NCBI GenBank assembly: GCA_964345045.1
Contig: CAYFPM010000003.1
Location: 70,038-134,037 of the forward strand
Direction of reading: 5' to 3'
Length of the DNA stretch: 64,000 nt
Origin: an uncultured Gammaproteobacteria bacterium
Lineage (GTDB): Bacteria > Patescibacteriota > Patescibacteriia > Magasanikbacterales > UBA922
Each line of letters starts with the position of its first letter. The first letter of the stretch is position 1. Made by a program: the position numbers and the translations under genes. The notes beneath the pieces are model-generated. The model saw nothing but the letters and a program-made list of their open reading frames with translations, ran no database searches and had not been told where the DNA came from. Below, piece by piece: positions 433-19,053 of this stretch.

Positions 433-2568
433 TTATTTTTTTTCAAAAATCACATAGGATCCTTTTTGATCCGACCTATTATAGTACATTTCTAATTTTG
501 TTGCATTGTTATTTAGATATTGATTGGCAGTAGGTTCTCCAGAGATTATGTAGTCTGGCAAATTGCCCGTAGCAAATATATCTTCGCCAAAAGCAATATA
601 AGGATTCATTTGCATACGTTGTGATATATCTTGGCCTTTTAGCAAAAACCATAATTCTGGTTTGTCCACTACAAAAATACTTTTGTCAAAATGTGAACTT
701 GAAATTTCTTGAGCCAATTCTCTTGGAATTGGATTGTAATAAAGTTTATTGTCTCTTTGGGCTATCAAATGTATGGATTGTACCAAAACCAAAGCTAACA
801 CTATATAAGTACCAAACTTGAGCAAATTTCTTTTGTGATAGGCTGATAAGACAGTAAAAATCGAAATTGGGAAAAACAAAAGTAAAACCAAATGAGCTGG
901 AAATAAATATCGAAACCAACCCGAAGTACCTAAGAAAAATTTTATATTAAATAAAACAAAAATAAACAGAAGCACTTCTACCTGTTTTATTTTTTTATTT
1001 TTTGTTTGCAAAATAATAAAAATCGAGAAAAAGAAAGTTAGAATTGTAAAATGTAATAAAGTTGAATCCAAAATAAAATTGGACAAAGCAATTTTTTCTT
1101 CTGTTCCTACATTGTAGGGATTTGAATAATATTGCCAAATCTGTTGCAAATCTTGAGAAACAAATCCCTCTGGAAGAAGTGTTCTAAGCCACACCAAAAG
1201 TGGCAAGGCTGCCCCAAAAGCTAGATACAACCATCTTTTTATAAAAAGTTTTTTATAATAAATAGCTCTAATTATTTCCGAAAAACCAAGTGCTCCCAAG
1301 ATAACAAGATAAAAAACTTTGGTGCTGGCCGCCAAACCAAAAAATAGACCCGCCAAAAATATCTGCCAGTTCTTTTCTTTTTTAAAAAAAATCAAAGCAA
1401 GCAATAAATAAAATAGTCCCGGCACTTCTCCCAAGCCCCCACTAAGACCATTGCCATAAAAAGGCAAAAAGGTTACTACCAGAGCTAGCATTGGCAAAAC
1501 AAATTTTGTTCCATATGTTTCTTTTATCAGCTTGGCAGAGGCCCACAAAAAACCGAGCAAAAACAAAATCATGATTATCTGTGCTTGCCACAATCCCACC
1601 CCAAACAATTTAAAAGACAAAATTACAAAACCAATCAGCGGATAATTGGTACTAATAAAAAGCGGCCTACTTTCTATATATTGATCTTGTGAAAGTCGTA
1701 AGCTATAAACTCCATCTTCTACATAAGTTTTGGCCAAGCCCAGATTTACTCCATTATCAAACCAAGGGGATGGGCTGTCTGGGAACCCCCAAAAAACTGC
1801 TATCAAAAAAGTACTGATAACGGCTAACCAAGCTAATAATTTGATTTTACCTAGCTTGGCCAATCTCAATGAAAAAAATAAAACCACCAAATCTTTAATA
1901 GTACGAGGAATTCTTTTGGAAATATTGTAAGTGGTTTTTCTTCTCTCTTCACACACTACCGGAACTTCTTGGGTTTTTAACCCGGCGTGTTGGGCTCTCA
2001 ATACAAATTCTGTATCAAAAATTTCTTTCTCAGTCTTGCATTCTTTTATTATGGGTTTTATTTTTTCAGTTACTATTAATTTCATACCATGAGTATCGGT
2101 GCCAGAAAAATCAAAAGCTTTTTGCAAAAGCCAATTAAAAGTTTTGGTAATTGATCTACGCAAAAAAGGTCTGGTATCTTCTGCCCCCGGAGCTGTTTTT
2201 GACCCCACAATCATATCCAAATTTTCTTTGTATAGTAAATCCAAAGCTTTTTTTACAAATGGTACGTCCCAAAAATCTATATTAAATAAGACTGTATATT
2301 TGGAATTATTTTGTAACAAACCTTCTTTCAAAGCTTTGCCATAACCAGCTTCTGGCAAATGAATTGTTCTAACTTTGGGGAATTTATCAACCATTTTTTC
2401 CGCTATACTCTTGGTACGATCAAAACTACCATTTTCTACCAAAAAAATTTCATAATCCAAATCTGAAAAGTTTTTCTCCATTTCCAAAAACATTCTCTCT
2501 ACTTCTTTTTCGAGAATAGCTTCTTCATTATAGATTGGGACTACTAATGATAGTTCTTTCATATCCAT
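433..2568 (-). CDS. Bifunctional glycosyltransferase. The N-terminal GT2 domain resembles polyprenyl-phosphate sugar synthases of the Dpm1/Ppm1 type. It is fused to a C-terminal multi-TM GT-C-like (GT39/83-type) domain.
   Basis: The N-terminus (LSLVVPIYNEEAILEKEV...FLVENGSFDRTKSIAEKM...) is a GT-A/GT2 signature. The C-terminal roughly 450 aa form many hydrophobic helices typical of GT-C. Confidence 0.8.
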   Translation of the reverse strand: MDMKELSLVVPIYNEEAILEKEVERMFLEMEKNFSDLDYEIFLVENGSFDRTKSIAEKMVDKFPKVRTIHLPEAGYGKALKEGLLQNNSKYTVLFNIDFWDVPFVKKALDLLYKENLDMIVGSKTAPGAEDTRPFLRRSITKTFNWLLQKAFDFSGTDTHGMKLIVTEKIKPIIKECKTEKEIFDTEFVLRAQHAGLKTQEVPVVCEERRKTTYNISKRIPRTIKDLVVLFFSLRLAKLGKIKLLAWLAVISTFLIAVFWGFPDSPSPWFDNGVNLGLAKTYVEDGVYSLRLSQDQYIESRPLFISTNYPLIGFVILSFKLFGVGLWQAQIIMILFLLGFLWASAKLIKETYGTKFVLPMLALVVTFLPFYGNGLSGGLGEVPGLFYLLLALIFFKKEKNWQIFLAGLFFGLAASTKVFYLVILGALGFSEIIRAIYYKKLFIKRWLYLAFGAALPLLVWLRTLLPEGFVSQDLQQIWQYYSNPYNVGTEEKIALSNFILDSTLLHFTILTFFFSIFIILQTKNKKIKQVEVLLFIFVLFNIKFFLGTSGWFRYLFPAHLVLLLFFPISIFTVLSAYHKRNLLKFGTYIVLALVLVQSIHLIAQRDNKLYYNPIPRELAQEISSSHFDKSIFVVDKPELWFLLKGQDISQRMQMNPYIAFGEDIFATGNLPDYIISGEPTANQYLNNNATKLEMYYNRSDQKGSYVIFEKK

Positions 2569-4406
2569 TTGTTATACCACATTTGAAAAACTAATAAATT
2601 CCAAATTTTTCTACCATTATCTTTTTGCAAACTCATGTGCTCGTCAATAATATTCTTTACTTCTTTTTCATCAAAAAAACCAGTGTTTTTTATGTTTTCA
2701 TTAGACAAAGTCTCTAGTGTAAAATCTTTTAATTCCTTGGTAAACCACTTGGAAAGTGGTACCCCAAAACCTTGTTTTTTTCTATATATAATTTCCTTGG
2801 GCAATTTGTCCTTCATTAACTCTTTCAAAAGATGCTTAGTTTCAAAACCCTTTAGATGATAATTATATGGGAGAGACGTTACCAAGTCAACGAATTGATA
2901 ATCTAAAAAAGGAGCTCGTACTTCTAGTGAATTAGCCATACTAGCTCGGTCAACCTTTACCAAAACTTGATCCATAAGATATGTTCGCATATAAACTTTT
3001 GCCAACTGCTGCAATCGAGGAGCATCTTTTACCGAAAAAAAATAATTTTCAATCTCTTTGTAAATATTATTTTCTTCTTTATTTTTTATTAATTTATTTC
3101 TTGAATTTTTTGAGAAAGATCCCATCCAATCGTGATGAATATGTTCGTCTTCACTAGACAAGCCTGCCAAAAGTCTATCTAGTTTAAAACCAAAATTAAA
3201 ACGATCATGCGATGTGCCAATCATTTTTCTAACTTGTTTTAAAAAAACTTCTCCTAACTTATGGTTAAAAAATGGCAACATTTGTTCGGCAAAAAAAGTT
3301 GGATAACCAAAAAACAATTCGTCTCCCCCATCTCCTCCCAAGGCCACGGTTACTTTTCCCCTAGTAAATTTGGAGAGCAAATATGTAGGGATTACCGAAT
3401 AATCGGCTACTGGTTCATCAAATATATCTGGAACTTTTTCTACTACATCCAAAGCTTCTTTGGCCGACAAAATATGTTCATAATGATCTGTTTTCAAAAA
3501 ATCTGCTACTTGCCTAGCATAATTACTTTCATCATAACTTTTTTCTTCAAAACCAATACTAAAAGTTTTTATTTTTTGATTGGAATTTTTTTGGGCGTAG
3601 TAAGCAATAGTTGAACTGTCTAGCCCTCCGGAAAGAAAAATTCCAAGTGGCACATCTGCTACCAATCTTTTTTTGGTAGCCTCCGACAAGCAGTTTTCGA
3701 GAAGTTCCAAAGCTTCCTCTTTGTTACATTCTTTTTTTTGTTCAAAACTTATATCCCAAAACTTTTTCTTGTTTATCTTACTATTTTTTAATTGTAGGTA
3801 ATGTCCTGGTTCCAATTTGTAAACATTTTCAAAAATAGTATTTGGAGTTGGGATATAATCAAAAGCCAGGTATTGTTCCAATGATCTAAGATTGATTTGT
3901 TTTTTGAAACTTGGGTGTGCTACCAAAGATTTTAATTCTGAACCGAACATAAAAGTTTGTCCAAACATAGCCCAGTACAATGGCTTTTTGCCCATTTTGT
4001 CTCTAGCCAAAATTAGATTTTTGTTTGCTTTATTATAAATTGCCAAAGCAAACATTCCGTTAAATTTGGCAAAACAGTCTACACCAAAGATTTTGTAAGC
4101 TGCCAAGACCACTTCTGTATCACTTTGACTTTTAAATTTGTAACCAAATTTTATTAATTCTTTTTTTAATTCTTGAAAATTATATATTTCACCGTTGAAA
4201 ACTATTACCAAATTTTGATCCAAAGATACCATAGGTTGATGCCCAAGTGTGCTGGTGTCTATAATAGAAAGCCTTCTGTGTCCCAAGCCAAGATTATTTT
4301 CTACAAAAAAACCAACATCGTCTGGCCCACGATGTTTTATAGAATTAGTCATGCTCTCCAAAATTTCTCTTGTACCTTGACCAAAATAGCCGGCAATTCC
4401 ACACAT
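2559..4406 (-). CDS. asnB: Glutamine-hydrolysing AsnB-family amidotransferase (asparagine synthetase family). In this context it is probably a sugar amidotransferase.
   Basis: MCGIAGYF is the N-terminal nucleophile (Cys2) motif. The SGGLDSS PP-loop is present. I chose the start at the Met of MCGIAG (4406) rather than the longer ORF-track start. Confidence 0.85.
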   Translation of the reverse strand: MCGIAGYFGQGTREILESMTNSIKHRGPDDVGFFVENNLGLGHRRLSIIDTSTLGHQPMVSLDQNLVIVFNGEIYNFQELKKELIKFGYKFKSQSDTEVVLAAYKIFGVDCFAKFNGMFALAIYNKANKNLILARDKMGKKPLYWAMFGQTFMFGSELKSLVAHPSFKKQINLRSLEQYLAFDYIPTPNTIFENVYKLEPGHYLQLKNSKINKKKFWDISFEQKKECNKEEALELLENCLSEATKKRLVADVPLGIFLSGGLDSSTIAYYAQKNSNQKIKTFSIGFEEKSYDESNYARQVADFLKTDHYEHILSAKEALDVVEKVPDIFDEPVADYSVIPTYLLSKFTRGKVTVALGGDGGDELFFGYPTFFAEQMLPFFNHKLGEVFLKQVRKMIGTSHDRFNFGFKLDRLLAGLSSEDEHIHHDWMGSFSKNSRNKLIKNKEENNIYKEIENYFFSVKDAPRLQQLAKVYMRTYLMDQVLVKVDRASMANSLEVRAPFLDYQFVDLVTSLPYNYHLKGFETKHLLKELMKDKLPKEIIYRKKQGFGVPLSKWFTKELKDFTLETLSNENIKNTGFFDEKEVKNIIDEHMSLQKDNGRKIWNLLVFQMWYNKWI

Positions 4407-4408
4407 AA

Positions 4409-5545
4409 TTAATCTAAAAATTTCAAAATGTTTTCCACCCTTTTGTCCCAAGTGTAAGCTTTCACTTTTTTAGAGGCTTCTTCTACAATATCTTCTATTG
4501 ATTTTCCTCCAACCAAAGCTATTTTTATCCCTATCGCCAAAGCTTCGGGATTGTCTGGTTCTACCAAAACAGAATTTTTTTCATCTAGTATTTCTCTTAT
4601 AGATGGCAAATCAGAAGCTACAATTGGTCTATTGGCAGCCATATATTCAAACAATTTCATTGGCGATGTATATTGTTTGGATATTTTGCTTTCTCCACTA
4701 TTTGGCAAAACCAAAACATCGGCAGCACACATATATTCTGGGATAGTCTCATATTTTTTATGTCCAAGAACTAATACATTTTCAAATCTTCTTGTTTTTA
4801 TTTTTTGTGTGAAGCTAGCAATATCTTTGTCTGTTCCACCGACAAACACGAGAATTTCGTCTTTAAAAAAATTAGAAGCTTCTAACAAAGTATGTGCTCC
4901 TTTCCATTTGTATAAGTGGCCTGTGTAAAGAATTAATTTTTTTTCTAGTGGGAGATTAAGTTCTTTTCTACATCCTTCTTTTGTTTTTTTTATAGAAAAT
5001 TTATTGATATCTACAGCATCAGGAGCTACAAAAATTTCTGCATTTTTATTTTTATCCAAAAACTTTTGCTTTAATGGCTCTGTTATCACTATTATCTTGT
5101 ACACTTTTAGCAAAAGTTTTGTGTAAATCTTGCTTTTTATTTTTGGAAAATTATGAGCTTCAAAAACCATTCTTCGTTTTTTGGATAAAAAAAATATTGG
5201 TAGTAAATCTCTGGTATAAACAAAATCATATTCATGATTGTGTTTTTTTGTATAAATAAAAACTGACAAAGCAAAACTTAAACTCTGCAAATAAAAAGCA
5301 AATCTACCAAATACTTTATCTAACTTAATTACATCCCAACAAAATATTTTTTTGACTCCAAAAGTTTTGGGGATATTATAATAATCAAAAATATCAGTGT
5401 GTATATTGTTTTTTCTTTTTGGCAAAAGTAAAGTAACTTCTCTACCAGAGTTGGCAAAAGCTTCACACATTTTGGCAATCTGAATACCATGCGCTTTTTC
5501 GGTAGGCATCCTAGCATTTGCTATGTACAATATTTTTTTATTCAT
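4409..5545 (-). CDS. Glycosyltransferase family 4 (GT-B fold).
   Basis: A C-terminal GT4 signature is present (...LVEPDNPEALAIGIKIAL...). It is tightly packed in the operon. Confidence 0.8.
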   Translation of the reverse strand: MNKKILYIANARMPTEKAHGIQIAKMCEAFANSGREVTLLLPKRKNNIHTDIFDYYNIPKTFGVKKIFCWDVIKLDKVFGRFAFYLQSLSFALSVFIYTKKHNHEYDFVYTRDLLPIFFLSKKRRMVFEAHNFPKIKSKIYTKLLLKVYKIIVITEPLKQKFLDKNKNAEIFVAPDAVDINKFSIKKTKEGCRKELNLPLEKKLILYTGHLYKWKGAHTLLEASNFFKDEILVFVGGTDKDIASFTQKIKTRRFENVLVLGHKKYETIPEYMCAADVLVLPNSGESKISKQYTSPMKLFEYMAANRPIVASDLPSIREILDEKNSVLVEPDNPEALAIGIKIALVGGKSIEDIVEEASKKVKAYTWDKRVENILKFLD

Positions 5546-7232
5546 TTGTGTTTAGCTTAATAATATAAACATCTGGCCCCAAATATTTATCTTTTGATTG
5601 CCATATTTTGGCAAAAGAAAGCCCTGATCCATCGGTTGGAATATCATTTACAGGATCATCATTTACAAATCCATTATACACCTTAATTACCTCTCCCAAA
5701 GAATCAATGTCCACATTTACACCCTTGGTCTTGGCAAAATCTGGATCAAGAACCAAATATTCAAAATTATTATTTTTTAAATAATCAGCAAAATTGCTAT
5801 AAAAATCTTTGGCAACTACTTCATTTAGATTAAGAGCAAAAAAAATCTTATTATTTCTATATTCTTTAGCCAGTCTTTTTTCAGCCAAATCTATTTTACG
5901 AATTGAAGCTGGTTCTATTTTTTCTTTTTCTAAGACAGCTTCTCTGTTGGCAGGCAATCTGGTAAGTGGAGCAAGCACTACTACTTTGGTGTCCTCCTCT
6001 ATGTTTTGCAAAAAATAATTTCTAGCTGCTGTTCTAGAATCTTCTAACTGACTAAAAAACATACTGGTTGGCAAAATCAAAGCTAGCCAAACAATTACAG
6101 TAATCGCAGCTTGAAGTTTCTGAGATTTATTTGGCAAAACTTGTAAAAAATTATTCAAACTATATCCGGCGACTAGTGCAAAAAGTGGATAAAGAATCAA
6201 AATAAAACGACTGACATCTAAAAAAAGATAATAAAAAATAGCGATATAAAAAATTACAAAAGAAAATATGGCTAAAAAATAGCCTCGTTTTTTCAAAAAC
6301 AACATCAAAAAACCAGCTATTATAAAAAATAAAAATACAGGTTCTCTATTTAATATGTCTATCAAATAAAAATTGTAACTACCAAAAAGACCTACCAAAG
6401 TTTTGCCTTTTGTTATAGCTTCGCTTGCTCCTTCTGCTACATAGAATCCTCGTGGCCAAACCAAGTAAGCTAGCCCAGAAAGAGAAAAAAATCCTAACAA
6501 AGCTTGCCAAGACCAAGGCTTCTTTAATTCTTTTGTTATAGCAAGTTTATCTACAAACAAAAACCAAAACAAAATAAAAATTGTCAAAAGACCAACTTGG
6601 AGACTAATACCAATTCCTAGGCCGGCAAGAAGACAAGCCAATAAATATTTTTTTTCTTTGCCCCAAGTTTTGTGAGACAAAAAATAAATAATTAAAGAAA
6701 ATACAAAAGTTGCCGGCACCCAATGTCTCGCCCAATGTGAGAACAAAACATGCAAAATACTAAAAGACAAAAAGGCGGCTGACAAATAAGCTATTCTTTC
6801 ATTTTGAAAAATATTCTTGGCAGTTTTGTAAACTACCAAAATGGTAAGTACCCCCAAAATTACACTAATTAGGCGGGCAGATATAAATAAAGTAGATAAA
6901 TCTAAAATTGAATAATCCACAAATTGCTGCAAGCTGCCCGAAAAAAATAAAAATTTTGCTCCAAGAATAATTACAAAAGGAAGTAGATAAATATAAGAAA
7001 TATAAGGTGTGTAATAAAAAATTCCTTTAAAAACTTCGTCGTGTAACGACGGAAGCAATGTTTTTAGCTCAATCATTTTTAATGAACCAAATATAAAAGA
7101 AGGTTCATCGGCAATTAACCAGAGAGGCAAACCATAAGAAATTCCAAGCAATCTATAGATAATCCCCAAAAACAAAATTATTCCAATTGGAGTTGAGATA
7201 AATTTAAATATATCTTTTATTTTTGTTTTCAT
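5538..7232 (-). CDS. GT-C family membrane glycosyltransferase (ArnT/PMT-like, GT39/GT83-type).
   Basis: It is a 564-aa polytopic membrane protein with an N-terminal cluster of TM helices and a soluble C-terminal domain. It overlaps the neighbouring genes by a few nt. Confidence 0.7.
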   Translation of the reverse strand: MKTKIKDIFKFISTPIGIILFLGIIYRLLGISYGLPLWLIADEPSFIFGSLKMIELKTLLPSLHDEVFKGIFYYTPYISYIYLLPFVIILGAKFLFFSGSLQQFVDYSILDLSTLFISARLISVILGVLTILVVYKTAKNIFQNERIAYLSAAFLSFSILHVLFSHWARHWVPATFVFSLIIYFLSHKTWGKEKKYLLACLLAGLGIGISLQVGLLTIFILFWFLFVDKLAITKELKKPWSWQALLGFFSLSGLAYLVWPRGFYVAEGASEAITKGKTLVGLFGSYNFYLIDILNREPVFLFFIIAGFLMLFLKKRGYFLAIFSFVIFYIAIFYYLFLDVSRFILILYPLFALVAGYSLNNFLQVLPNKSQKLQAAITVIVWLALILPTSMFFSQLEDSRTAARNYFLQNIEEDTKVVVLAPLTRLPANREAVLEKEKIEPASIRKIDLAEKRLAKEYRNNKIFFALNLNEVVAKDFYSNFADYLKNNNFEYLVLDPDFAKTKGVNVDIDSLGEVIKVYNGFVNDDPVNDIPTDGSGLSFAKIWQSKDKYLGPDVYIIKLNTNE

Positions 7233-7789
7233 ACTTTGAAAATATCGGCTTCTTCTCTAGACAACCATGCTTTTAATGACTCGGCATTTTGATCGCGAAG
7301 AGATAAAGTTGGATTTTCTATTGGCCAATTTATATCTAAGTCAGGATCATTCCAAGCTATATTTGATTCACCATTTTGGTTATATAGCGCAGTATACTGA
7401 TACTCTACTTCGGCCAAGTCCCCCAAAACACAAAAACCAGAAGCAAAGCCTGGTGGAACATAAAGTAATTTTTTGTTGTGACTGCTCAATTCAAATCCCA
7501 ACCATTCTCCAAGTGTAGCGGAATTCTTGCGAATGTCTGCCGCTACTACAAAAGCATCTCCGTTTATAATTCTAATCAATTTGCCCAAAGGCTGATCGTA
7601 TTGAAAATGTAAACCACGTAATATTTTGCCAACAGAACGACTGTGATTGGTTTGGACAAAATTAAGACGAAGACCTGCTTCGGCAAAATAATCTTGCCGA
7701 AAAACTTCCATAAAAAAACCTCTTTCATCTCCCTTTACTTCCGGCTCTATCAAAAACAAACCCTTCAATTTTGTTTCTTTTACATTCAT
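7229..7789 (-). CDS. rfbC: dTDP-4-dehydrorhamnose 3,5-epimerase.
   Basis: The RmlC cupin motifs are classical (FIEPEV.GDERGFF, RGLHFQ, YVPPGFAHGF-like). The start is set at MNVKET (7789). Confidence 0.9.
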   Translation of the reverse strand: MNVKETKLKGLFLIEPEVKGDERGFFMEVFRQDYFAEAGLRLNFVQTNHSRSVGKILRGLHFQYDQPLGKLIRIINGDAFVVAADIRKNSATLGEWLGFELSSHNKKLLYVPPGFASGFCVLGDLAEVEYQYTALYNQNGESNIAWNDPDLDINWPIENPTLSLRDQNAESLKAWLSREEADIFKV

Positions 7790-7844
7790 ATATAAAAACT
7801 TAGGCAAAAAACCAACTACTAATCCCCTAAAAACTAGCACCTAG

Positions 7845-8909
7845 TTAATACCATTGTCCTTTTGATTGCTTTTCGTAATGATCTAAAAATTCTTTTTTAG
7901 TTTTTATTTTTTGCCACCACTCTCTGTTGTCTAGATACCAATCTACTACAGCTCCCAAACTTTTTTCCAAACTATGCGCTGGTTGCCAACCAAGTTCTGT
8001 TCTTAATTTGGTAGAATCCGGGGCATATCTGGTATCTGCTCCAGGCCTATCGTTTATATGTTCTTTGTGTAAATCCAAATCAATATTAAGTTTGTTTGCA
8101 ATCAGGCTCAAAACTTCCAAATTGGTTTTTTGTTCTCCGGAAATATTGTAAGTTTCAAATAATGGAGCCCGGTGCATTACAGTATCAACCGCATTACAAA
8201 AATCTTGCACATGAATCCAAGTACGCACATGATCTCCCTTGCCATGTACTGGCACTTTTTTACCTTCTATAAAATTGGAGATAGCCAATGGAATTAATTT
8301 TTCCGGATATTGGTAAGGACCATAATTGTTTGATCCACGCACAATTATAGCCGGTACTTCGTGAGTTCTAATAAAAGATTGCACTACCAAGTCAGCAGCC
8401 GCTTTGGAAGAAGAATACGGATTAGATGGTTTTAGCGGAGAATCTTCGGTGGAGACACCATCTTCTACACAACCATAAATTTCGTCGGTAGAAATGTGCA
8501 CCAATCTCTCACTACCATATTTGCGAACGGCTTCTATAATAGATCTGGTACCCCCAATATTAGTACGAATAAAATCGTTCATACTAATAATAGAACGATC
8601 GACATGAGTTTCGGCTGCAAAGTTTACTACGATATTGAATTTATGTTTTTGAAAAAGAATATCGAGCAATCTATCATCACAAATATCTCCATAGATAAAA
8701 TGATATCTTTTGTCTTTGGCATGCACCCCAGATTCTAGTGTTTCTATATCTGTTAGGTTGTCTTGGTTGCCGGCATAAGTAAGCAAATCCAAATTATAAA
8801 TTTCGTACTCCGGATAACTGTGGTAAATATGGCGTACAAAATTAGAGCCCATAAAACCATACCCTCCGGTAATTAATATTTTTTTTCTGGTTTCAGTATT
8901 AACGTTCAT
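7845..8909 (-). CDS. rfbB: dTDP-glucose 4,6-dehydratase.
   Basis: KILITGGYGFMGSNFVRHI is a Rossmann motif. An extended-SDR YxxxK is present and the similarity to RmlB runs along the whole length. Confidence 0.9.
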   Translation of the reverse strand: MNVNTETRKKILITGGYGFMGSNFVRHIYHSYPEYEIYNLDLLTYAGNQDNLTDIETLESGVHAKDKRYHFIYGDICDDRLLDILFQKHKFNIVVNFAAETHVDRSIISMNDFIRTNIGGTRSIIEAVRKYGSERLVHISTDEIYGCVEDGVSTEDSPLKPSNPYSSSKAAADLVVQSFIRTHEVPAIIVRGSNNYGPYQYPEKLIPLAISNFIEGKKVPVHGKGDHVRTWIHVQDFCNAVDTVMHRAPLFETYNISGEQKTNLEVLSLIANKLNIDLDLHKEHINDRPGADTRYAPDSTKLRTELGWQPAHSLEKSLGAVVDWYLDNREWWQKIKTKKEFLDHYEKQSKGQWY

Positions 8910-10128: not shown

Positions 10129-10133
10129 AACTT

Positions 10134-11182: not shown

Positions 11183-11965
11183 TTATTTTTTTATTTCAAA
11201 TTTTTCGTATTTTTTAATTCCCATACGATGCAAGATACACTTGGACATTACATCCAAAGTCATAAAACCATAAACCACGCTTTGACGAAAATTTGGTGAT
11301 TTTGATTCTTCGGTATAACGAGTTGGGATCCCGATTTCTGTTACTTTAAAATCCCCCAAGGAAAGCTCGGCCAACATCTCGGTGTCAAACACATAATTGT
11401 TGGAATTTTTTTCGAATGGAACTTTTTGCAAAAACTCTTTGGTATAAGCACGGTAGCCAGTATGATACTCACTCAATCCCAGATGAAGAACTGCTTCTTC
11501 TATTTTGGTAAGCGCAATATTGGCAACAAATCTCCACCACGGCATACCACCTTTTCTAGCTTCGCCCTTTACGTGCATGCGAGAACCAAAACAGGCTGCT
11601 GTTTCTGTACTTGCCAATTTTTCCACCATTTTTGGAAGTAAAGTAGGATCATATTGAAAATCAGAATGTACCATTACCACAATATCTGCCCCTAGTTTGA
11701 TAGCTTCTGTATAACCGGTTTTTTGGGCAGCTCCATAGCCTTTGTTTACTTCGTGATTAACCAAATGCACATCTAGATTTTTGGCAATTTCCTCTGTCTT
11801 GTCACGACTACCATCGTTGACTACCAAAATAGTATCTATTATATCCTTTGGCAAAGCCTTTACTGTTTTTTCCAAAGTTAATTCTGTATTGTAGGCTGGT
11901 ATAAAAACCACCACTTTTTTATTTTGAAACATACTACTTTTAAGGAGTAATTTAATTTTATACAA
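11183..11965 (-). CDS. Glycosyltransferase family 2 (Dpm1-like polyprenyl-phosphate sugar synthase type).
   Basis: VVVFIPAYNTELTLEKTV...VVNDGSRDKTEEIAK is a GT-A signature. An alternative ATG start at 11932 (MFQNKK) is possible. Confidence 0.8.
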   Translation of the reverse strand: MYKIKLLLKSSMFQNKKVVVFIPAYNTELTLEKTVKALPKDIIDTILVVNDGSRDKTEEIAKNLDVHLVNHEVNKGYGAAQKTGYTEAIKLGADIVVMVHSDFQYDPTLLPKMVEKLASTETAACFGSRMHVKGEARKGGMPWWRFVANIALTKIEEAVLHLGLSEYHTGYRAYTKEFLQKVPFEKNSNNYVFDTEMLAELSLGDFKVTEIGIPTRYTEESKSPNFRQSVVYGFMTLDVMSKCILHRMGIKKYEKFEIKK

Positions 11966-12063: not shown

Positions 12064-13458
12064 TTACAAAACTCTGGTTAGCCTATCCAAAACTGTTCCA
12101 AAATTTATAAAAAAATCCAACAAAGAAACTAGAATTAAAAATGAAAAAGTGTACAGAAGACTTTTTTCTTTGTACCATTTTTTATTCTGCATACTTTTGT
12201 AAATCATGTAACCAGCAAAAAGTACTAAAAAAGGATAAATCTGAAACCTGTACCTAGATTGAACCACCGTTGGCAAAAGTACTAGTGGTGAGGTAGCGGC
12301 CATAACTGCTAGGTAATAAAAAATGGTTTTTTTCTTTTTGAGAAGCTCTACCAAACCAGAAAACCCAGCTAGAAAAACTCCGGCAATCCACACTAAGGAA
12401 CTAAAGACTACCGCACCTTCTCCCAAACCACTTTGGTAAAACCAAAAACCCATTGGCCTAATTAAACTAAAAAAGCGGATAAACCTAAGAAAGGTTAATT
12501 TGATAAAAACAAATGGATGGTTTAATAAAAACATTTTGAATTCCATACCTGCTTTTTCTTTTAGACCAAAAAAACCATTTTCATTTACATATTCTCGCAA
12601 AGGATTGTAGCCGTCTGCCAATTGGCCGCCATCGGCTTGTAGAGTATTCCCCACCCAAATATTAAACTCTCCGATCATGGTGGTAATGATAAGCTGATTG
12701 TAAATTAAGTAATTGCGAATTACCCATGGTGAAAGAGCGGCAAGAGCGGCAAACAAAAATACTGCCCCAGCTTTGTAAGATTTTTTTTGTATGTATAAAA
12801 ATAAAAAAATTGGAATAAAAAGTAAGATTGGAGGTCTCGTTAGCACCGCCAAACCGGTTATTAACCCAGATACCAGTGCAAGACAAATGTTTTTGTGGTC
12901 TTCATAGACTTTTACAAAAAGAAAAAGCGTCAACACTGTAAAAAATAAATACAAAGTTTCTGTCATGAGCATGGCCGAAATTTCGATTAAGTCTGGCCAA
13001 AAAGCAAATAAAGCTGCTGAGATTAGGGCAATATTTTTCGCCCCCTCCCCTGTCATCCCGAGCATAGCGAGAAATCTTTTTCTAATGTCTTTTTTCTCAT
13101 CAAGCTCTATATTTGAAAAAACCCTCAATGCAATCAAATATATTAACCAAACTGAAACGGTGTGAAGCAAAGCTTGGATAATCCAAACTACTTCGTAATG
13201 GTGACCAAAAATTTTGTAAACTCCCGCCAAAAAATACTCATAGCCTGGGCCAGCCCTCACTATAGCATTGTCCCACTCGTAGCTTAGGCTGCTATCTTCG
13301 CGAAAGCCAAAACCATCGACAATATTTACAGCAATTACGTCGTAAGCCTGTGCGTCCACCACCGGATGGATACGGAAGTAAAACGAATATATTAATGGCA
13401 GCAAAAAAGACAGGACCAAAATCCAAGCTAAAGTTTTGTTTTGTTTTAGTATTTGCAT
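12064..13458 (-). CDS. GT-C-like polytopic membrane glycosyltransferase (ArnT/PMT-like).
   Basis: It is a 464-aa protein with many TM helices. It is a paralogue in architecture to 5538..7232 and 17410..19053, and it follows a GT2 synthase gene. Confidence 0.65.
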   Translation of the reverse strand: MQILKQNKTLAWILVLSFLLPLIYSFYFRIHPVVDAQAYDVIAVNIVDGFGFREDSSLSYEWDNAIVRAGPGYEYFLAGVYKIFGHHYEVVWIIQALLHTVSVWLIYLIALRVFSNIELDEKKDIRKRFLAMLGMTGEGAKNIALISAALFAFWPDLIEISAMLMTETLYLFFTVLTLFLFVKVYEDHKNICLALVSGLITGLAVLTRPPILLFIPIFLFLYIQKKSYKAGAVFLFAALAALSPWVIRNYLIYNQLIITTMIGEFNIWVGNTLQADGGQLADGYNPLREYVNENGFFGLKEKAGMEFKMFLLNHPFVFIKLTFLRFIRFFSLIRPMGFWFYQSGLGEGAVVFSSLVWIAGVFLAGFSGLVELLKKKKTIFYYLAVMAATSPLVLLPTVVQSRYRFQIYPFLVLFAGYMIYKSMQNKKWYKEKSLLYTFSFLILVSLLDFFINFGTVLDRLTRVL

Positions 13459-13540: not shown

Positions 13541-13628
13541 AAAACTGCGCTCCAAAGAACCAAAATGGCTGTCTCTTCCTTAGAGACAACCATAAAATTC
13601 TTTGGAAAGGATAGGAAAGAAAGTGTCG

Positions 13629-14426
13629 AGTAATTTTGTAATCGCCACCACTACTTACTGCAGAGACCCTGCAGATGTCCAGGCTAGACTAACTGTGAGA
13701 ACAGTAAAAGAAGCCCGAAGCAGATTCACCCAAATTGTGGTGGCCGATCGTGGCAGCTCTCCTCAATTTGTAGCTATGCTCAAATCTGCCGGAGCAACTG
13801 TCTGTACTGCAGAAGGATCGCCTGGTCAGGCAACTCGTCTGGCTCTAAAAGAAGCTATGGACAGGGCCACCGGTGGCCACTGTGTAGTCTGGATGCCTTC
13901 GTGGATGTATAAGGCAGTAAGCGCAGCGCGCCAATTGGCCGAGAGAATCCACCACAACAAATTCGACCTTTGCCTGGCTTTTCGGACAGCAAACTCTATG
14001 AAAAGCCACCCCGCAGCTCAAATAGCAGCCGAGACTAGAGTCAATCAGTTTTTCAGAGGGTTGTTACCAGCTCCCAAGGAAGGTAGAAGGGTCAAAAGCT
14101 TCACTCCCCTATTCAAACTAGATCAGTGTGACCCAACCCTTGGCGTGTTTGCTATCGGAGCCAGAACTCTTCCGTTTTTTCTAGAGTATGCGGGCAACTA
14201 TGGCGACAATGTTTGGGATGCGATTCTTGTTCCTATCATGCAAATCATTGCTGACTCAAGCATGAAAAAACGGACTCTTTCAGCTAATCGATACAAGTTC
14301 CCCGAAGAGCTGCTTGGCTTGGTGGAGAAAAGAAAACTTTGGCTGGAACTGGCGGATGTAGAAGAAGCCCTAGTAGAGGAGGCAATCCGACTAGGTTGGA
14401 GGGATTCTCATGACAGACTGTGGTAA
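13629..14426 (+). CDS. Hypothetical GT-A-like nucleotide-diphospho-sugar transferase fold protein. It lies in a compositionally foreign high-GC cassette.
   Basis: The ORF is 13602..14426. I chose the GTG at 13629 because an AGGAAAG Shine-Dalgarno lies 5 nt upstream. The N-terminal VIATTTYCRD...IVVADRGSS resembles the GT-A beta1 strand and a DxD-like region. G+C is about 50% by eye against about 30% in the flanks. Confidence 0.55.
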   Translation, partial: SNFVIATTTYCRDPADVQARLTVRTVKEARSRFTQIVVADRGSSPQFVAMLKSAGATVCTAEGSPGQATRLALKEAMDRATGGHCVVWMPSWMYKAVSAARQLAERIHHNKFDLCLAFRTANSMKSHPAAQIAAETRVNQFFRGLLPAPKEGRRVKSFTPLFKLDQCDPTLGVFAIGARTLPFFLEYAGNYGDNVWDAILVPIMQIIADSSMKKRTLSANRYKFPEELLGLVEKRKLWLELADVEEALVEEAIRLGWRDSHDRLW

Positions 14427-14452
14427 GTACCACCAACCGCTCTTTTCCAAAA

Positions 14453-14479
14453 GAGGATTCACAATCCTCAACCCCTTCC
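14453..14479. repeat. Copy 1 of a short repeat element: a GAGGAT(T)/ATCCTC hairpin followed by AACCCCTTCC, then an AAATTTTAAA tract.
   Basis: gaggattcacaatcctcaaccccttcc lies directly 3' of the first high-GC gene. A second copy is at 15377..15402. Confidence 0.5.
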
Positions 14480-14547
14480 TTGTGTTTTTAAATTTTAAAG
14501 ACAAAAGGAAGTGGTAAAAAACACTTCAGAAAGACAAGAGACATTTC

Positions 14548-15183
14548 GTGAATAATTTCTCTTTTCCTGCCAGAATTTCTTGCCACGGAAGATTCAACTC
14601 CATTCGACTAATCCGAGCTACGGTCCCGATCATACCCGACGAGACAAATGCACTGATCGAATTGCGATGGCAAGAAGAGCTAGCAAGGAATCCTAAACTC
14701 CACAACGGCTCACTTGCAGCCCTGCATGCGCTGAATGCAAAGTGTGATCAACTAGAAGTTCGGTGGTGCGAAAGCAACTACCGAGAGTACCTGGGTGCCA
14801 GTCACCCTAACATCCCAAACGAACACCGACGACTACCTATGAGTGTAGGACTCCTCGTCCGAGTCAACTACTCTAGCTACCTAGTCGCAACTCGCAGTCC
14901 AGGGGTAGACTGGCCACTCATGCGTCACCTCAGCGCAGCTGGCGGAGTCAAAGCCGGTGAAAACCCCTTCGACGTAGTCCTGAGAGAGGCCAAAGAAGAA
15001 CTGGGGCTAGACCCTCATGAACTAGAGCCCCTTTCTTGCCTGGGTGTAGTCGAAGATCTGGTGAGGCCGCAGTACATGTTCGTCTTCGTGGCCGATGTAC
15101 AAATCTCCGAAGCAGAACTGATCAAGAGAGCCGCCGCGGCCCCCTCTGCAGAAGAAAACTGCCAACTTACTTTCCTGGATTAG
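14548..15183 (+). CDS. NUDIX hydrolase (high-GC cassette gene).
   Basis: The Nudix box is canonical: GGVKAGENPFDVVLREAKEELGL matches Gx5Ex7REUxEExGU. The ORF has a GTG start. The true start may be the internal Met at MSVGLL. Confidence 0.75.
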   Translation: MNNFSFPARISCHGRFNSIRLIRATVPIIPDETNALIELRWQEELARNPKLHNGSLAALHALNAKCDQLEVRWCESNYREYLGASHPNIPNEHRRLPMSVGLLVRVNYSSYLVATRSPGVDWPLMRHLSAAGGVKAGENPFDVVLREAKEELGLDPHELEPLSCLGVVEDLVRPQYMFVFVADVQISEAELIKRAAAAPSAEENCQLTFLD

Positions 15184-15539: not shown

Positions 15540-16250
15540 CTAAGAAACAAAAGCGTACTTTACAATCGCATAAATGGCTCGGAAACCATCTTTCCAATTA
15601 ATCTTTTTGCCCTCGGCATAACTACGACCTCGGTAAGAGATACCTACTTCGTAAATTCTAATACCTTTGATTTTAGAAATTTTGGCAGTTGCCTCGGGAT
15701 CAAATCCAAATCTTTTTTCTTTTAACTCTATTTTTCTCAAAAATTCTGTTTTGAAAACTTTGTAGCAAGTTTCCATGTCTGTAAGATTCAAATTAGTAAA
15801 CATGTTGGACAAAGTGGTAAGAAATTTGTTGCCCAAATAATGCCAATAGTACAATACTCTATGTGGACGATTGCCCATAAAACGAGAACCATAAACCACA
15901 TCGGCATCGCCCTCTAGTATAGGCGCTAACAAAATTTTGTATTCGTCTGGTGAGTACTCTAGATCTGCATCTTGCACAATCACAATGTCTCCAGTGGCTT
16001 CTTTGAAACCTCTGTGAAGTGCTGCTCCTTTGCCCATGTTTTCTGGCTGGTCAAAAACTTTTATGCTGTATTCTTCTTTTAGTCTTTCCAAAATATCTCT
16101 ACTCTTGTCTTTGGATTTGTCGTTGACTGTAATAATTTCTTTTTCCAAACCCAAAGTATCAGAATGATGTACTTTTTTAATTATTTTTTCCAAAGTATTT
16201 TCTTCGTTGTAAACCGGGATAACAATCGAAACTTTTTTTAGATCGTGCAT
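15540..16250 (-). CDS. Glycosyltransferase family 2 (Dpm1-like polyprenyl-phosphate mannose/glucose synthase type).
   Basis: [21 protein letters not shown]...[16 protein letters not shown]...[13 protein letters not shown] carries a DxD motif and has GT-A signatures. Confidence 0.85.
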
Positions 16251-16391
16251 ATCTACTTAATTATAATTTTAAACTTATTAGTTTTAATATTAGCTCTAAC
16301 AAATTTCACTTTGTTTAATTTGTCACTCCCAAAACAAAATCCAAATTCAAACCTCAATCTTATTCTCAATCTTAATCCTAAATACTATTCA

Positions 16392-17420
16392 CTATCCACT
16401 ACAACCTACTATCTTATCTATCACATTTTTTAAATTATGCTTGGCTACTACACTAGCTCTGCCATCTATATTTAAGCCAGAATTTTTTTGCAAAACTTCT
16501 TCTATTTTTCGAGCTAGCTCGTCTACTTGATTTGGTTCAAACTTGTCTACAGAATTTGCAAAATATCCATAAGCTTCACTAGAACTAATTACCCAAAGTC
16601 CTGTGGCCAAGGCTTCCAAAACCACTTTGTCCAAACTCCCAGTTCTACTGGTGTGGACTAATATACTATGCTTTTTATAAATTTCTGGCAAATCTTGGTA
16701 TTTTTTGGCTCCTACAAAACTAACTCTATATTCTAGGCCAAGTTTTTTTACCAAATCTTTTATTACACTCAAATATTCTTTATCTTTTTTCTGGATTGGT
16801 TCTCCTACAATGTCGAGGGTAAAATCTTTCTCTATTTTTTTAAGTGATAGAACCACAGTTTCCAAATCTTTTACTGGACTTATCCTCCCTACCCAAAGTA
16901 ATTTTTTATTACTTGCAGCACTCGCATCTTTTAGATCAAACAAATCAGTATCTATACCATGACCAACTACTTGTAATTTTTTTGTTTTTAATCGAAAGCT
17001 TGTTTCCGAAGCTGTAAAAATTTTGTTTACTACCATAGTGGCTAGACGCAAACGCAAATTTACCGCTTTATGGGTATACCACAACAAAGTTTTTTTACCG
17101 AGTAGCCACCACAGTTTCCAACCCAAGATTATGTATTCTGGATTCATGTGTACAAAAACCGCCTCGTAATTTTTTCTTTCGGTCCAAATGTATTTGTAAA
17201 AATTTAGACCTCTTTTAACTTTTCCAGCTCCAGATTCTTTGCCCAAAGAAAGTACTTTTACATTGCTCGGCAAATTGTACTCCCTTTTTTGTAAACAAAT
17301 CACAGTAAGAGAATCCACCTTTTTTGCCAATTCTGTTAGCCAAGTATGAAAAAATCCCAAATTACTATCTGTTTTGTCTACTATTTGAGTTGTAACTAAC
17401 AATTTCATACTACTTTGCAA
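16392..17420 (-). CDS. Glycosyltransferase family 4.
   Basis: It has a GT-B C-terminal domain (VGRISPVKDLETVVLS...), with LVHTSRTGSLDKVVLEALATG resembling the EX7E region. Confidence 0.8.
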   Translation of the reverse strand: MQSSMKLLVTTQIVDKTDSNLGFFHTWLTELAKKVDSLTVICLQKREYNLPSNVKVLSLGKESGAGKVKRGLNFYKYIWTERKNYEAVFVHMNPEYIILGWKLWWLLGKKTLLWYTHKAVNLRLRLATMVVNKIFTASETSFRLKTKKLQVVGHGIDTDLFDLKDASAASNKKLLWVGRISPVKDLETVVLSLKKIEKDFTLDIVGEPIQKKDKEYLSVIKDLVKKLGLEYRVSFVGAKKYQDLPEIYKKHSILVHTSRTGSLDKVVLEALATGLWVISSSEAYGYFANSVDKFEPNQVDELARKIEEVLQKNSGLNIDGRASVVAKHNLKNVIDKIVGCSG

Positions 17421-19053
17421 ATATTATTATGTTTGGCCCCATAGCTCTATACCGCCACAAGTTTATAAACATTGGTAACCAAGTATTGTCTGGGATAGAT
17501 CCCCAGGCGGTGTAACCTAGCTTGAAACTAGACAAAATTTCTTTTTCTTTTTTGTAGCCCAACCTTTTTAGTGCCGCCTCATTTTTATCAAAACTATCTG
17601 TTTTCTCCAAAATTAAAAACTTTGGTGTTTGGTCTATTTCTTCTACCTCTTCAAACTCAATTATATACCTAGATTTATTATTTTCTAAATTGTTTTGCAA
17701 AATTCTTTCTTCGGATTTGCCAATATTGTGCACTCTTGTCTCTTGCAAAGATTCTTTGTTTGCAACTAAGCCTAGCAAATGAAAGTCTATGCTGGTCGCA
17801 ATAGAGTCCCCTTTTTCTGTATTTTCTAATACATACTGGGCAGCCAATTGCCTAGTGTCTGGTCTATAGGCTTGTTTAGTTATAGCCAATATCCCTACCG
17901 CTTGCAAAGCAATTAGCAAATACAAAGCATACTTAAGATAAACGCTTTTGTCAATTTGCAAAAACAGTCTAGAGGTTACAAAAAAAGCCGCTGGCAAAAC
18001 TACCAAAGCAAAACGGCCGGTAATGACATCGCTAAAACCAAATACCAAAATAAATAATATAACCTGTGCTAGAGCAATCTTGTCATAAATTTCTAGTCTA
18101 ACTTTTTTATTGTAAAAAAGATAAGAAAAAATTACTAGAGAAAAACCCAAAACAATTTCTGTTCTCCATAAAAAGACTTTGGCAAATTGAAACAAATTGA
18201 CTAGTGCAAAAGTTGGTCTTTGGTGCGAGCTGCTAAGTAGCTGAGTCCCCCCTCCACCGAGGTTAAGTAAAGAAAAAACAAACTGCGGATAGCCTACCAA
18301 AATTGCAAGTAATCCAGATACGAGTAGGCTAAACCAAAACTTTTTATTACTTATTCTTGCCTTGAATTGAAGTTTTTCTTGCTCATAAAAATGAGCTAAA
18401 ACTGGCAAAATGAAATTTACTATTCCACTTTGCGATAATGCTAACGTAAAACCTGCGGCTCCAAAAGCCAGAGCATAATTTTGCCAAGATTTTTTCTCTA
18501 CCAAATGAAATGAAAAATAAAGTGTAAGCGCTGTTCCAAAAAATGCCAAGCTATGAATGCGCGGCATGACCGAAAAAAAAGTTGTATAGTAGCTAGTCCC
18601 TGCCAATAGCAACAGTATTAAGCCAGCTTTTTTTGAATTTTTTGTAAATTTTATTGTTAATTTGTACAACAAAAAAACAGAAACTAAATTTGCAAACAAA
18701 ACAAAAAGTCTTATCCAAAAAAACAAATTAGTTTCTCCCAAAGCATAACTATTGGCAAAATGATCTGGTGAAACAAAATTCCCAAACAGATAATAAAATC
18801 CAATCACCGGCACATACAGATAAGAACCCAAAAGCGGATACTTGTGATCACTAGCCAAAAAACTTAATAGCTCTCCACCTTGCAAGGATTGTAAAAATGA
18901 AAAAGCCGCAGGAACATTGGTATCCCAAATTCTTTGTGCATCTAGTCCATTTGTAAGAAGAGCTATTCTTGGGAGCAAAAATAGGATTATGATAAGCAAT
19001 AGACTAATTTTTTCTTTTATTTTCATATCTTTAAATTGTACCGAAAAAATCAC
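17410..19053 (-). CDS. GT-C-like polytopic membrane glycosyltransferase (ArnT/PMT-like).
   Basis: It is a 547-aa protein with 12 or more hydrophobic helices and a C-terminal soluble domain. It overlaps GT4 by 11 nt. Confidence 0.65.
   Translation of the reverse strand: MIFSVQFKDMKIKEKISLLLIIILFLLPRIALLTNGLDAQRIWDTNVPAAFSFLQSLQGGELLSFLASDHKYPLLGSYLYVPVIGFYYLFGNFVSPDHFANSYALGETNLFFWIRLFVLFANLVSVFLLYKLTIKFTKNSKKAGLILLLLAGTSYYTTFFSVMPRIHSLAFFGTALTLYFSFHLVEKKSWQNYALAFGAAGFTLALSQSGIVNFILPVLAHFYEQEKLQFKARISNKKFWFSLLVSGLLAILVGYPQFVFSLLNLGGGGTQLLSSSHQRPTFALVNLFQFAKVFLWRTEIVLGFSLVIFSYLFYNKKVRLEIYDKIALAQVILFILVFGFSDVITGRFALVVLPAAFFVTSRLFLQIDKSVYLKYALYLLIALQAVGILAITKQAYRPDTRQLAAQYVLENTEKGDSIATSIDFHLLGLVANKESLQETRVHNIGKSEERILQNNLENNKSRYIIEFEEVEEIDQTPKFLILEKTDSFDKNEAALKRLGYKKEKEILSSFKLGYTAWGSIPDNTWLPMFINLWRYRAMGPNIIIFAK

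Follow-up and report, generated by a model that had tools for sequence, protein, structure and literature searches.

The window analysed here (a 64,000-nucleotide stretch, positions 70,038 to 134,037 of contig CAYFPM010000003.1) encodes an array of membrane glycosyltransferases (GTs) within a large glycan locus. From 433 to about 53.5 kb it consists almost wholly of glycan-biosynthesis genes, mainly on the minus strand: five polytopic transferases of the GT-C type, three small family 2 enzymes (GT2s), at least nine GT4 glycosyltransferases, two AsnB-like amidotransferases and two Wzy_C proteins. Its sugar-nucleotide enzymes are RmlB, RmlC, an RfbH-like pyridoxal phosphate (PLP) enzyme, GMD and several short-chain dehydrogenases/reductases (SDRs). 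In one case, a GT2 and a GT-C are joined in a single polypeptide. An earlier interpretation made from the DNA letters, the sequence-only reading, had named five GT-Cs and three Dpm1-like GT2s. This is borne out by open reading frames at the coordinates claimed, all on the minus strand, and by Pfam, hhalign, Foldseek and Protein Data Bank (PDB) matches. The gene extents also stand (Table 1), with the refinement that translation of 17410-19053 and 11183-11965 probably begins at internal ATGs, and to the gene list has to be added a sixth gene with multiple transmembrane (TM) helices, which starts at 431 and leaves the window. Genes are designated below by their lower coordinate.

The window is bacterial, since it encodes an extracytoplasmic function (ECF) sigma factor. 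Its composition is about 33% GC, the GC profile revealing one high-GC island close to the right end, and no RNA genes were found in it with Rfam and ARAGORN. Homologues of the fusion and of a Wzy_C protein described below are overwhelmingly from Patescibacteria, Candidatus Magasanikbacteria above all. Judged from these relatives, the host is a Patescibacterium (Candidate Phyla Radiation, CPR) near Magasanikbacteria. Several TPA_asm contigs labelled 'uncultured Gammaproteobacteria bacterium' (L001, L005, L006, L012, L013, L017, L028 and others) have Patescibacteria-type gene content and synteny, and their labels look wrong.

The membrane transferases and their partner synthases

In the fusion, residues 1 to about 215 constitute a GT domain resembling dolichol-phosphate mannose synthase (DPMS), GtrB and ArnC, the helices at 216-259 provide the linker and TM1, and residues from about 241 to 711 form a GT-C domain of the ArnT fold. 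An AlphaFold2 (AF2) model, computed from a 29-sequence alignment, reached a mean local confidence (pLDDT) of 87 and a predicted TM-score (pTM) of 0.79. Foldseek matched its N-terminal domain to the Dol-P-Man synthase 5mlz, GtrB and ArnC (E ~1e-9), and its membrane domain to ArnT 5ezm (E 2e-7, target-normalised TM-score (TMt) 0.58, 554 columns, 12% identity) and ALG12. The C-terminal half has no Pfam match of its own; its homologues carry PF13231. The loop-1 motif P266-W269-D271-G273 is invariant across the 29 aligned sequences, and hhalign (92.9%) places D271 on the Asp of the 'LDE' motif of the 30704 family.

The fusion is genuine, as the sequence-only reading had it, because an intact 711-residue copy (P0068) occurs in an independent assembly, some 30 full-length homologues exist (about 24 at 45-59% identity and five more distant ones) and the model is confident. 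The European Nucleotide Archive (ENA) assembly ERZ930070 (60,841-bp contig; P0066/P0067), from a near-identical strain or assembly, carries the fusion gene with its reading frame broken around residue 387, within the GT-C half, be it through a sequencing error or because this is a pseudogene variant. That the fusion might be a frameshift or assembly artefact is ruled out, since the frameshifted copy breaks within the GT-C half and not at the junction, and an intact copy is known. Outside the CPR, the nearest relatives of the GT2 domain (P0053, P0054, P0057, P0059) are fused to an FAD-dependent oxidoreductase or to a YdjC-like domain (PF04794). The latter fusions recall Francisella FlmF2/NaxD/FlmK, and would hint at an N-acetylhexosamine donor.

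The gene that starts at 431 encodes a protein whose homologues have 10-11 TM helices and, in the closest relatives (L001-L006), always lie directly downstream of the fusion or of the corresponding split pair (L006:12139-13863, L003:12197-13909, L002:12158-13930). The first loop of this family contains the invariant pattern N-x-E-x-H-Y-x-A-x(3)-E-x(2)-D. The family has no Pfam match, its hhalign comparison with the fusion family gave a match at the level of TM helices only, and a homologue search with the 143-residue fragment in the window returned a single 185-residue match. The protein could be another GT-C-like enzyme or a transporter.

All five membrane proteins belong to the GT-C transferases. 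In each, 7-10 TM helices are predicted and an acidic residue comes soon after TM1; this residue is invariant in the four families with homologue alignments, 17410 being one sequence alone. The sequence-only reading had suggested looking for an acidic motif in loop 1, and the fusion model and the family alignments indeed place an invariant Asp after TM1, which is the predicted catalytic residue. The five proteins are pairwise at most 25% identical, which makes them ancient paralogues rather than recent duplicates. Profile comparisons connect some of them: the 5538 and 30704 families align by hhalign at 96.9%, and 17410 aligns with the 5538-family profile at 99% probability (E 7e-18, 504 columns). 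PDB sequence searches with the four stand-alone proteins returned nothing significant.

As to family, the PMT domain (PF02366, gathering score 22.7) scored 23.3, 26.3 and 34.6 bits, and PMT_2 (gathering score 26.1) scored higher every time. PMT_4TMC was not found in any of the five proteins at E<=0.01 in Pfam, hence no GT-C is a true GT39 enzyme, and no YfhO (PF09586) match was returned for any of them. An Asp-Glu pair in loop 1 is invariant in the 5538 and 30704 families, while the fusion, 12064 and 17410 have the Asp only; such a motif occurs in other GT-C families too. The ArnT equivalog PRK13279 matched 30704 alone, with 29.8 bits against a cutoff of 567. By these profile comparisons none of the five is ArnT or a bona fide PMT. 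The sequence-only reading had named ArnT enzymes in an organism with an outer membrane as the finding that would speak against it. This case does not arise: the host is a Patescibacterium, the best ArnT score is far below the cutoff and Patescibacteria are not known to have lipopolysaccharide (LPS).

The three GT2s are, by sequence, DPMS/GtrB/ArnC-like polyprenyl-phosphate glycosyltransferases. The best PDB sequence match of all three is the P. furiosus Dol-P-Man synthase 5mlz (E 1e-8 for the fusion domain, 2e-23 over the entire catalytic domain for 15540 and 5e-10 for 11183), followed by ArnC and GtrB. No TM helices are predicted in 11183 and 15540, and eukaryotic DPM1 and mycobacterial PpgS likewise lack them. 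All three score below the cutoffs of the NCBIfam equivalog models (the top family for the fusion domain is PgfS, at 45.8 bits against a cutoff of 500), so that sugar specificity is not assigned by model.

Table 1. Features of the window (coordinates and strand as in the window)
Feature	Coordinates	Strand	Evidence and remarks
Start of multi-TM gene (homologues 570-630 aa)	1..431	-	Sequence; begins 1 nt after the fusion stop codon, leaves the window
GT2::GT-C fusion, 711 aa	433..2568	-	Pfam GT2 64.6 bits; AF2; Foldseek; split orthologues in L002 and L013
AsnB-like glutamine amidotransferase 1	2559..4451	-	Pfam Asn_synthase 336 bits; NCBIfam
GT4 glycosyltransferase GT4a	4409..5545	-	Pfam
GT-C, 5538 family	5538..7232	-	PMT_2 42.9 bits; invariant W38..D42-E43-P44 after TM1
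Deoxy-sugar nucleotide genes: RmlC, RmlB, RfbH-like PLP enzyme, SDR	7229..11180	-	Between GT-C 5538 and GT2 11183
Stand-alone Dpm1-like GT2	11183..11965	-	Pfam; NCBIfam best PpgS and AglJ; likely start ATG 11932
GT-C, 12064 family	12064..13458	-	PMT_2 47.4 bits; after TM1 invariant D35..Y39, near-invariant D40
Unknown gene and NUDIX, ~45% GC	13602..15183	+	GC profile; Pfam; separates GT2 15540 from GT-C 12064
Stand-alone Dpm1-like GT2, canonical DAD motif	15540..16250	-	Pfam 123.6 bits
GT4 glycosyltransferase GT4b	16392..17420	-	Pfam; overlaps GT-C 17410
GT-C, divergent 5538-family paralogue	17410..19053	-	PMT_2 23.3 bits, under gathering score; likely start ATG 19026
Cytoplasmic glycan-assembly block	20363..30634	-	Pfam; NCBIfam
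GT-C, 30704 family	30704..32464	-	PMT_2 85.2 bits; invariant H37-D38..D42-E43
GT4 glycosyltransferase GT4g	32513..33712	+	Pfam; conserved convergent neighbour of Wzy_C-TPR
Wzy_C membrane protein, extra TM helix, C-terminal tetratricopeptide repeats (TPR)	33675..35705	-	Wzy_C PF04932 74.6 bits (gathering score 31.7)
Membrane-anchored TPR protein, 224 aa	35732..36406	-	Pfam TPR; N-terminal TM; conserved position
Surface protein, secreted or anchored, 1262 aa	36541..40329	-	Sequence; 22% Ser+Thr; no Pfam domain
ECF sigma factor and single-pass anti-sigma-like protein	40561..42586	-	Pfam, sequence; conserved upstream of surface gene

Coupling of GT2 and GT-C genes across genomes

A scan limited to one genome per species gave 78 loci, which were annotated locally by phmmer with the window proteins as queries. 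In nearly every locus, stand-alone homologues of the GT-C half (~480 residues) adjoin a GT2 of ~240 residues. The GT2 lies upstream of the GT-C on the same strand in L002, L004, L005, L007, L008, L011 and L013, downstream in L017, L021, L023, L028, L059 and L075, and in divergent orientation in L010, L014, L015 and L018. In L002, the GT2 shares 60% identity with fusion residues 3-235, and 3 nt separate its end from a GT-C with 48% identity to residues 247-679; the orthologous pair is likewise split in L013. This makes the window gene a read-through fusion of two neighbours whose orthologues remain separate in these genomes. In one Magasanikbacteria locus, a UbiA-family prenyltransferase gene (L023:12144-13139) comes right after the GT-C/GT2 pair, which recalls decaprenyl-phosphoribose synthesis for the mycobacterial GT-C arabinosyltransferases.

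A family profile search covered 1.84 billion representatives. In its top 150 clusters, about 10 are fused to a GT2 (~7%), 2 are otherwise fused and about 130 stand alone, so that what is uncommon is the GT2::GT-C fusion itself. The sequence-only reading had called the GT2-first order uncommon, and this does not hold: the order recurs in independent GT2::PMT_2 fusions (L004, L077, P0062, P0150). Those at L004:295-2685 (797 residues) and L077:11580-13358 (593 residues) use a GT2 of the 15540 subtype, a different one, which indicates that such a fusion arose more than once in Patescibacteria. In ArnT, PMT and PglB, the N-terminus is cytoplasmic and the C-terminal domain lies outside. Because a GT2 needs cytoplasmic nucleotide sugars and the GT-C N-terminus is cytoplasmic, GT2-first is the only order compatible with the topology.

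Flippases are linked to the same family. In P0155, a GtrA flippase domain (PF04138), confirmed by Pfam, is fused to a GT-C of the fusion's family. P0195 is a second GtrA::GT-C protein by its 47% identity to the N-terminal region of P0155, and in 10 loci a GtrA gene standing on its own is found no more than 10 kb from a family member. By adjacency or fusion with both GT2 and GtrA, all three components of a Gtr-type system are thus tied to this GT-C family. In addition, a Wzx flippase gene (Polysacc_synt_3) lies near the fusion in the syntenic loci L006 and L002.

Within the window itself, one pair is fused, a second stands 99 bp apart and a third lies in one operon with one GT4 between its members. 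Synteny suggests other partnerships than those proposed in the sequence-only reading. Orthologues of GT2 15540 adjoin orthologues of GT-C 12064 in L014 and L028, with GMD or GT4c between them in L017 and L023, while in L006 GT2 11183 is kept in one module with the dTDP-sugar genes and GT-C 5538. The ancestral pairs hence appear to be 15540 with 12064, 11183 with 5538, and the fused pair, leaving GT-Cs 17410 and 30704 without a partner GT2. The genes at 13602-15183, which encode a 274-residue protein and a NUDIX hydrolase, probably represent an insertion that split the first of these pairs, since they are of ~45% GC and have no counterpart in syntenic loci. The general logic put forward earlier, a polyprenyl-phosphate sugar synthase plus a GT-C, is supported by the conservation of the pairs, by the split and fused orthologues and by the GtrA::GT-C fusions.

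The surface-protein cassette and the rest of the locus

The 1262-residue protein is the Ser/Thr-rich surface protein that the sequence-only reading placed 20 kb away; its richness in Ser and Thr and its proximity to the locus hold, while the measured distance is 4 kb from the nearest GT-C (30704) and 17.5 kb from coordinate 19053. A metagenome scan with this protein yielded 27 loci from organisms of 27-52% GC, 19 of which are long enough to be informative. They reveal a conserved cassette made of an ECF sigma factor, an anti-sigma-like protein, the surface protein, often the small TPR protein, the Wzy_C protein with C-terminal TPR (Wzy_C-TPR) and a convergent GT4, then frequently GT4f-GT4e-GT4d. 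Of the 19 informative loci, 18 have Wzy_C-TPR after the surface gene. On the other hand, a strong homologue of GT-C 30704 lies close to the surface gene in two of them only (L084, L096). The GT-C genes thus look like variable accessories around the cassette. For the earlier proposal that the GT-Cs decorate the surface protein, synteny with the glycan locus is favourable, whereas the invariant neighbour is Wzy_C-TPR and a GT-C is near in few lineages; the co-occurrence of GT-Cs and surface protein that the proposal would lead one to expect is not seen.

The AF2 model of Wzy_C-TPR (pLDDT 87, pTM 0.86) has WaaL 7tpg as its top Foldseek match (E 4e-7, TMt 0.68), and its C-terminal TPR superhelix resembles that of OGT. 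One extra TM helix follows the WaaL-like core, which would place the TPR domain outside. R266, R292 and H342 are invariant in 30 homologues and may be equivalent to the catalytic residues of WaaL/PglL. Wzy_C-TPR is the candidate glycan ligase or O-oligosaccharyltransferase (O-OTase). PglL homologues commonly adjoin their targets (PMC3643930).

The left-hand operon runs from 13458 to 1, its genes overlapping by 4-43 nt or standing at most 99 bp apart. The first AsnB-like gene overlaps the fusion start by 10 nt and is kept upstream of the fusion in L001-L003 and L006. In NCBIfam, rmlC scores 207.7 bits (cutoff 155.75), dTDP-glucose 4,6-dehydratase 391 bits (cutoff 365) and the RfbH-like PLP enzyme 347 bits, which is under its cutoff of 423. 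The cytoplasmic block contains AsnB2, GT4c, an SDR, GMD, an SDR, GT4d, GT4e, GT4f and a UXS/ArnA-like SDR, with gmd over its NCBIfam cutoff at 523 bits. This gene set recurs, locally rearranged, in L017/L023/L028, where GT4f, GT4e, GT4d, GT4c, GT4b, GT2, GMD, two GT-Cs, GT2, AsnB and GT4a are all found. An acidic 289-residue protein encoded at 19096-19965 (minus strand; ~45% GC) has no counterpart in syntenic loci and is probably an insertion.

Upstream of the sigma factor in many genomes lies a block, here at 43882-53481, with a DUF11 repeat surface protein, GT4h, a GHL15 glycoside-hydrolase-like protein bearing FG-GAP repeats, and GT4i. The window adds to it a membrane-bound spermine-synthase-like protein and a second Wzy_C protein without TPR (52075-53481), which may be a polymerase. 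Farther right, the island at 54500-62800 has coding stretches of 58-66% GC and spacers of ~38-45% GC in a genome of 33% GC. It encodes, both on the minus strand, a 658-residue lipoprotein-like, Cys/Asp-rich secreted protein with a MopE metal-binding motif (55981-57957) and an 812-residue protein with an Ala/Arg-rich low-complexity segment and no Pfam match (60365-62803); rRNA and tRNA were not found in it. The island may be a horizontal acquisition from a high-GC bacterium or reflect a chimeric assembly.

Interpretation and comparison with known systems

The folds and families of the enzymes, the fusion, the conservation of gene pairs and locus, and the association of surface protein and Wzy_C-TPR are direct observations. 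They are accounted for, with a probability that we put at roughly 0.55, if the region is the distal part of a ~50-kb Patescibacterium surface-glycan locus with three GtrB/GtrC-type modules, whose glycan is attached to the surface protein by Wzy_C-TPR. In each module, a small cytoplasmic GT2 would move one sugar from a nucleotide sugar onto polyprenyl phosphate; the lipid-linked sugar would be flipped, as a GtrA-type protein presumably does in relatives, and the GT-C would add it outside the membrane, the two enzymes acting as a Gtr-like unit for single sugars. One module would work as a single polypeptide, its GT2 domain joined to TM1 of the GT-C. The likeliest acceptor of the GT-Cs would be the glycan that the locus itself makes with its GT4s and sugar-nucleotide enzymes, and which Wzy_C-TPR would then most likely attach to the neighbouring 1262-residue protein. 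The locus is therefore best read as a surface-glycoprotein glycosylation system with lineage-variable glycan chemistry.

Several points weigh against this interpretation. Within the 64 kb, no flippase (GtrA, Wzx or SMR-type) was found with Pfam or, for GtrA, with tblastn, nor was an initiating phosphoglycosyltransferase found with Pfam; lipid carrier, sugars, flippase and acceptors are all inferred. The distant genomes L108 and L109 keep the sigma factor, anti-sigma factor, surface protein and Wzy_C protein with no PMT_2 gene within 10 kb, and their downstream glycan genes differ (Wzx, LicD, methyltransferase, GT2, GT4). The GT-C modules are thus not obligatorily tied to the surface protein and could serve a different wall polymer. 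PglL_A was not found in Wzy_C-TPR with Pfam at E<=0.01, and sequence cannot separate a protein O-OTase from a ligase for other acceptors or a Wzy polymerase. Moreover, monoderm bacteria are known to have GT2 and GT-C systems that attach sugars directly to proteins (PMC11092751).

Such direct O-glycosylation, the main idea of the sequence-only reading, in which one or more GT-Cs would pass single sugars from a polyprenyl-phosphate sugar to Ser/Thr of the 1262-residue or other secreted proteins, would parallel actinobacterial Ppm1/Pmt and streptococcal GtrB/PgtC2 and PgfS/PgfM1. The streptococcal enzymes modify Ser/Thr-rich regions, with targets encoded in the cluster (PMC11092751). Here, the surface protein has the composition of such a target and a GT-C gene 4 kb away, with 30704 homologues equally placed in L084 and L096; a PMT-like D-E motif occurs in the 5538 and 30704 families, and three GT-Cs score at or over the PF02366 gathering score. 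Nevertheless, none of the five has PMT_4TMC, PMT_2 always outscores PMT, and the GT-C genes co-vary with GT4 and sugar-nucleotide genes and not with the surface protein, near which the 30704 type occurs in only two of 19 loci and no GT-C within 10 kb in L108/L109. Because the two fail to co-occur and the invariant neighbour of the surface gene is Wzy_C-TPR, direct O-glycosylation is possible but disfavoured, and we regard it as unlikely. A second alternative takes the GT2s as initiators of a polysaccharide like lactococcal polysaccharide pellicle (PSP): they would form sugar-phosphate-polyprenol, which GT4s elongate and Wzx flips, before GT-Cs polymerise the product and ligate it to a wall polymer or protein. 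A pathway with a GT2 (WpsA), a GT-C polymerase (WpsH) and a GT-C ligase (WpsJ) has been described (PMC10821137), and it would explain why the window lacks a WecA/WbaP-type initiator despite at least nine GT4s, why GT2 15540 comes directly after a GT4 and amid a GT4 run in conserved loci, and why Wzx lies near the fusion in L006 and L002. However, the missing initiator may sit outside the window, a WpsB/GacJ-like small activator was not identified within it, the GtrA-type genes and GtrA::GT-C fusions suit monosaccharide donors better, and it would be strange for the initiator to be fused with the last-acting ligase when many cytoplasmic steps lie between them; this scheme is a rival to be taken seriously but quite improbable. 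It could also be argued that the modules modify a teichoic-acid-like or secondary wall polymer or a glycolipid, their nearness to the cassette being due to no more than the way envelope genes group together in a small genome. LPS, teichoic acids or rhamnopolysaccharides are what most of the characterised GT2/GT-C modules of bacteria modify (PMC7389260; PMC10821137), and the cassette without GT-Cs in L108/L109 fits this view. Yet the gene set of the superlocus and its near-identical order (Wzy_C-TPR, GT4g, GT4f, GT4e, GT4d ... GT2, GT-C) are kept across divergent Patescibacteria, which argues for one pathway rather than chance clustering and leaves an unrelated polymer very unlikely.

A bolder version of the glycoprotein interpretation can be formulated, which we consider doubtful at best. 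The fusion and the membrane protein encoded at 1-431 would form a self-contained machine, with no GtrA- or Wzx-type flippase, that makes a polyprenyl-phosphate sugar on the inner face, translocates it and uses it on the outer face, channelling the lipid intermediate inside a single complex, and the superlocus would build and multiply decorate the main S-layer-like glycoprotein of Magasanikbacteria-type cells under ECF sigma control.

CPR bacteria are ultrasmall, mostly uncultured episymbionts, whose surface mediates attachment to the host. A literature search on GT-C enzymes or glycosylation in Patescibacteria/CPR returned nothing relevant. The locus offers a concrete model for such a surface: an ECF sigma factor, an anti-sigma factor, a large surface protein and a Wzy_C-TPR of the WaaL fold, after which come glycan genes that vary with the lineage and include up to five GT-Cs. 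The GT2::GT-C and GtrA::GT-C fusions provide Rosetta-stone evidence that Patescibacterial 'family 39' annotations really denote GtrC-like enzymes, fed by polyprenyl-phosphate sugars, and the fused enzyme is a handy single polypeptide for studying synthase-transferase coupling by biochemistry and cryo-electron microscopy. No concept is overturned: the logic is well established in other bacteria, and the fused form is an uncommon variant. For the biology of the CPR cell surface, the cassette of surface protein and Wzy_C-TPR is a more useful lead than the fusion.

Among known systems, the modules compare with the three-component systems GtrA/GtrB/GtrC of Shigella phages, CsbB/GtcA/YfhO, GacI/GacK/GacL, ArnC/ArnEF/ArnT, PpgS/Rv3779 and RgtE/RgtA-D. 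They share with these a small GT2 related to DPMS/GtrB/ArnC beside a polytopic GT-C, with a predicted catalytic Asp after TM1, and, in relatives, GtrA-type genes that accompany this GT-C family or are fused to it. They differ in that one module is a single GT2::GT-C polypeptide, in the lack of C-terminal TM helices in the stand-alone GT2s (present in GtrB/ArnC), in the absence of GtrA from the window, in having five very divergent GT-Cs in one locus, and in their CPR host. The protein O-glycosylation systems, namely actinobacterial Ppm1/Pmt (GT39), S. mutans PgfS/PgfM1/PgfM2 and S. pyogenes GtrB/PgtC2, have in common with the locus the donor logic, a nearby Ser/Thr-rich extracytoplasmic candidate target and, for two families, the D-E motif of loop 1. 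Unlike in those systems, there is no PMT_4TMC or YfhO match, and the GT-Cs and the surface protein do not co-occur across genomes. The lactococcal pathways for rhamnose-rich cell wall polysaccharide (Rha-CWPS) and PSP (WpsA/WpsB, WpsG, WpsH, WpsJ) resemble it in the polyprenyl-monophosphate GT2, the run of cytoplasmic GTs, the Wzx of syntenic loci and the several GT-Cs; the lack of a WpsB/GacJ-like partner sets it apart, and the GT2::GT-C fusion and the GtrA association favour monosaccharide donors.

The S-layer glycosylation (slg) clusters of Geobacillus stearothermophilus and Paenibacillus alvei (WsaB/WsfB), together with the PglL-type O-OTases, offer a further comparison. According to PMC2943079, Wzy_C is present in the S-layer O-OTases WsaB and WsfB, and a TPR motif in WsfB and PglL; wsaB is preceded by the gene of a small TPR protein, WsaA, and rml genes and an asparagine-synthase homologue also belong to the clusters. 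Similarly, the locus has its surface gene beside Wzy_C-TPR and a small TPR protein, with rml genes, asparagine-synthase homologues and many GTs. In contrast, the window lacks a PglL_A domain, an ATP-binding cassette (ABC) transporter, Wzx and a WsaP-like initiator, its cassette is headed by an ECF sigma/anti-sigma pair, and it has GT2/GT-C modules, which the consulted passages of PMC2943079 do not describe for slg clusters. Overall, the locus resembles the S-layer clusters of Gram-positive bacteria, with the 1262-residue protein as the predicted glycoprotein.

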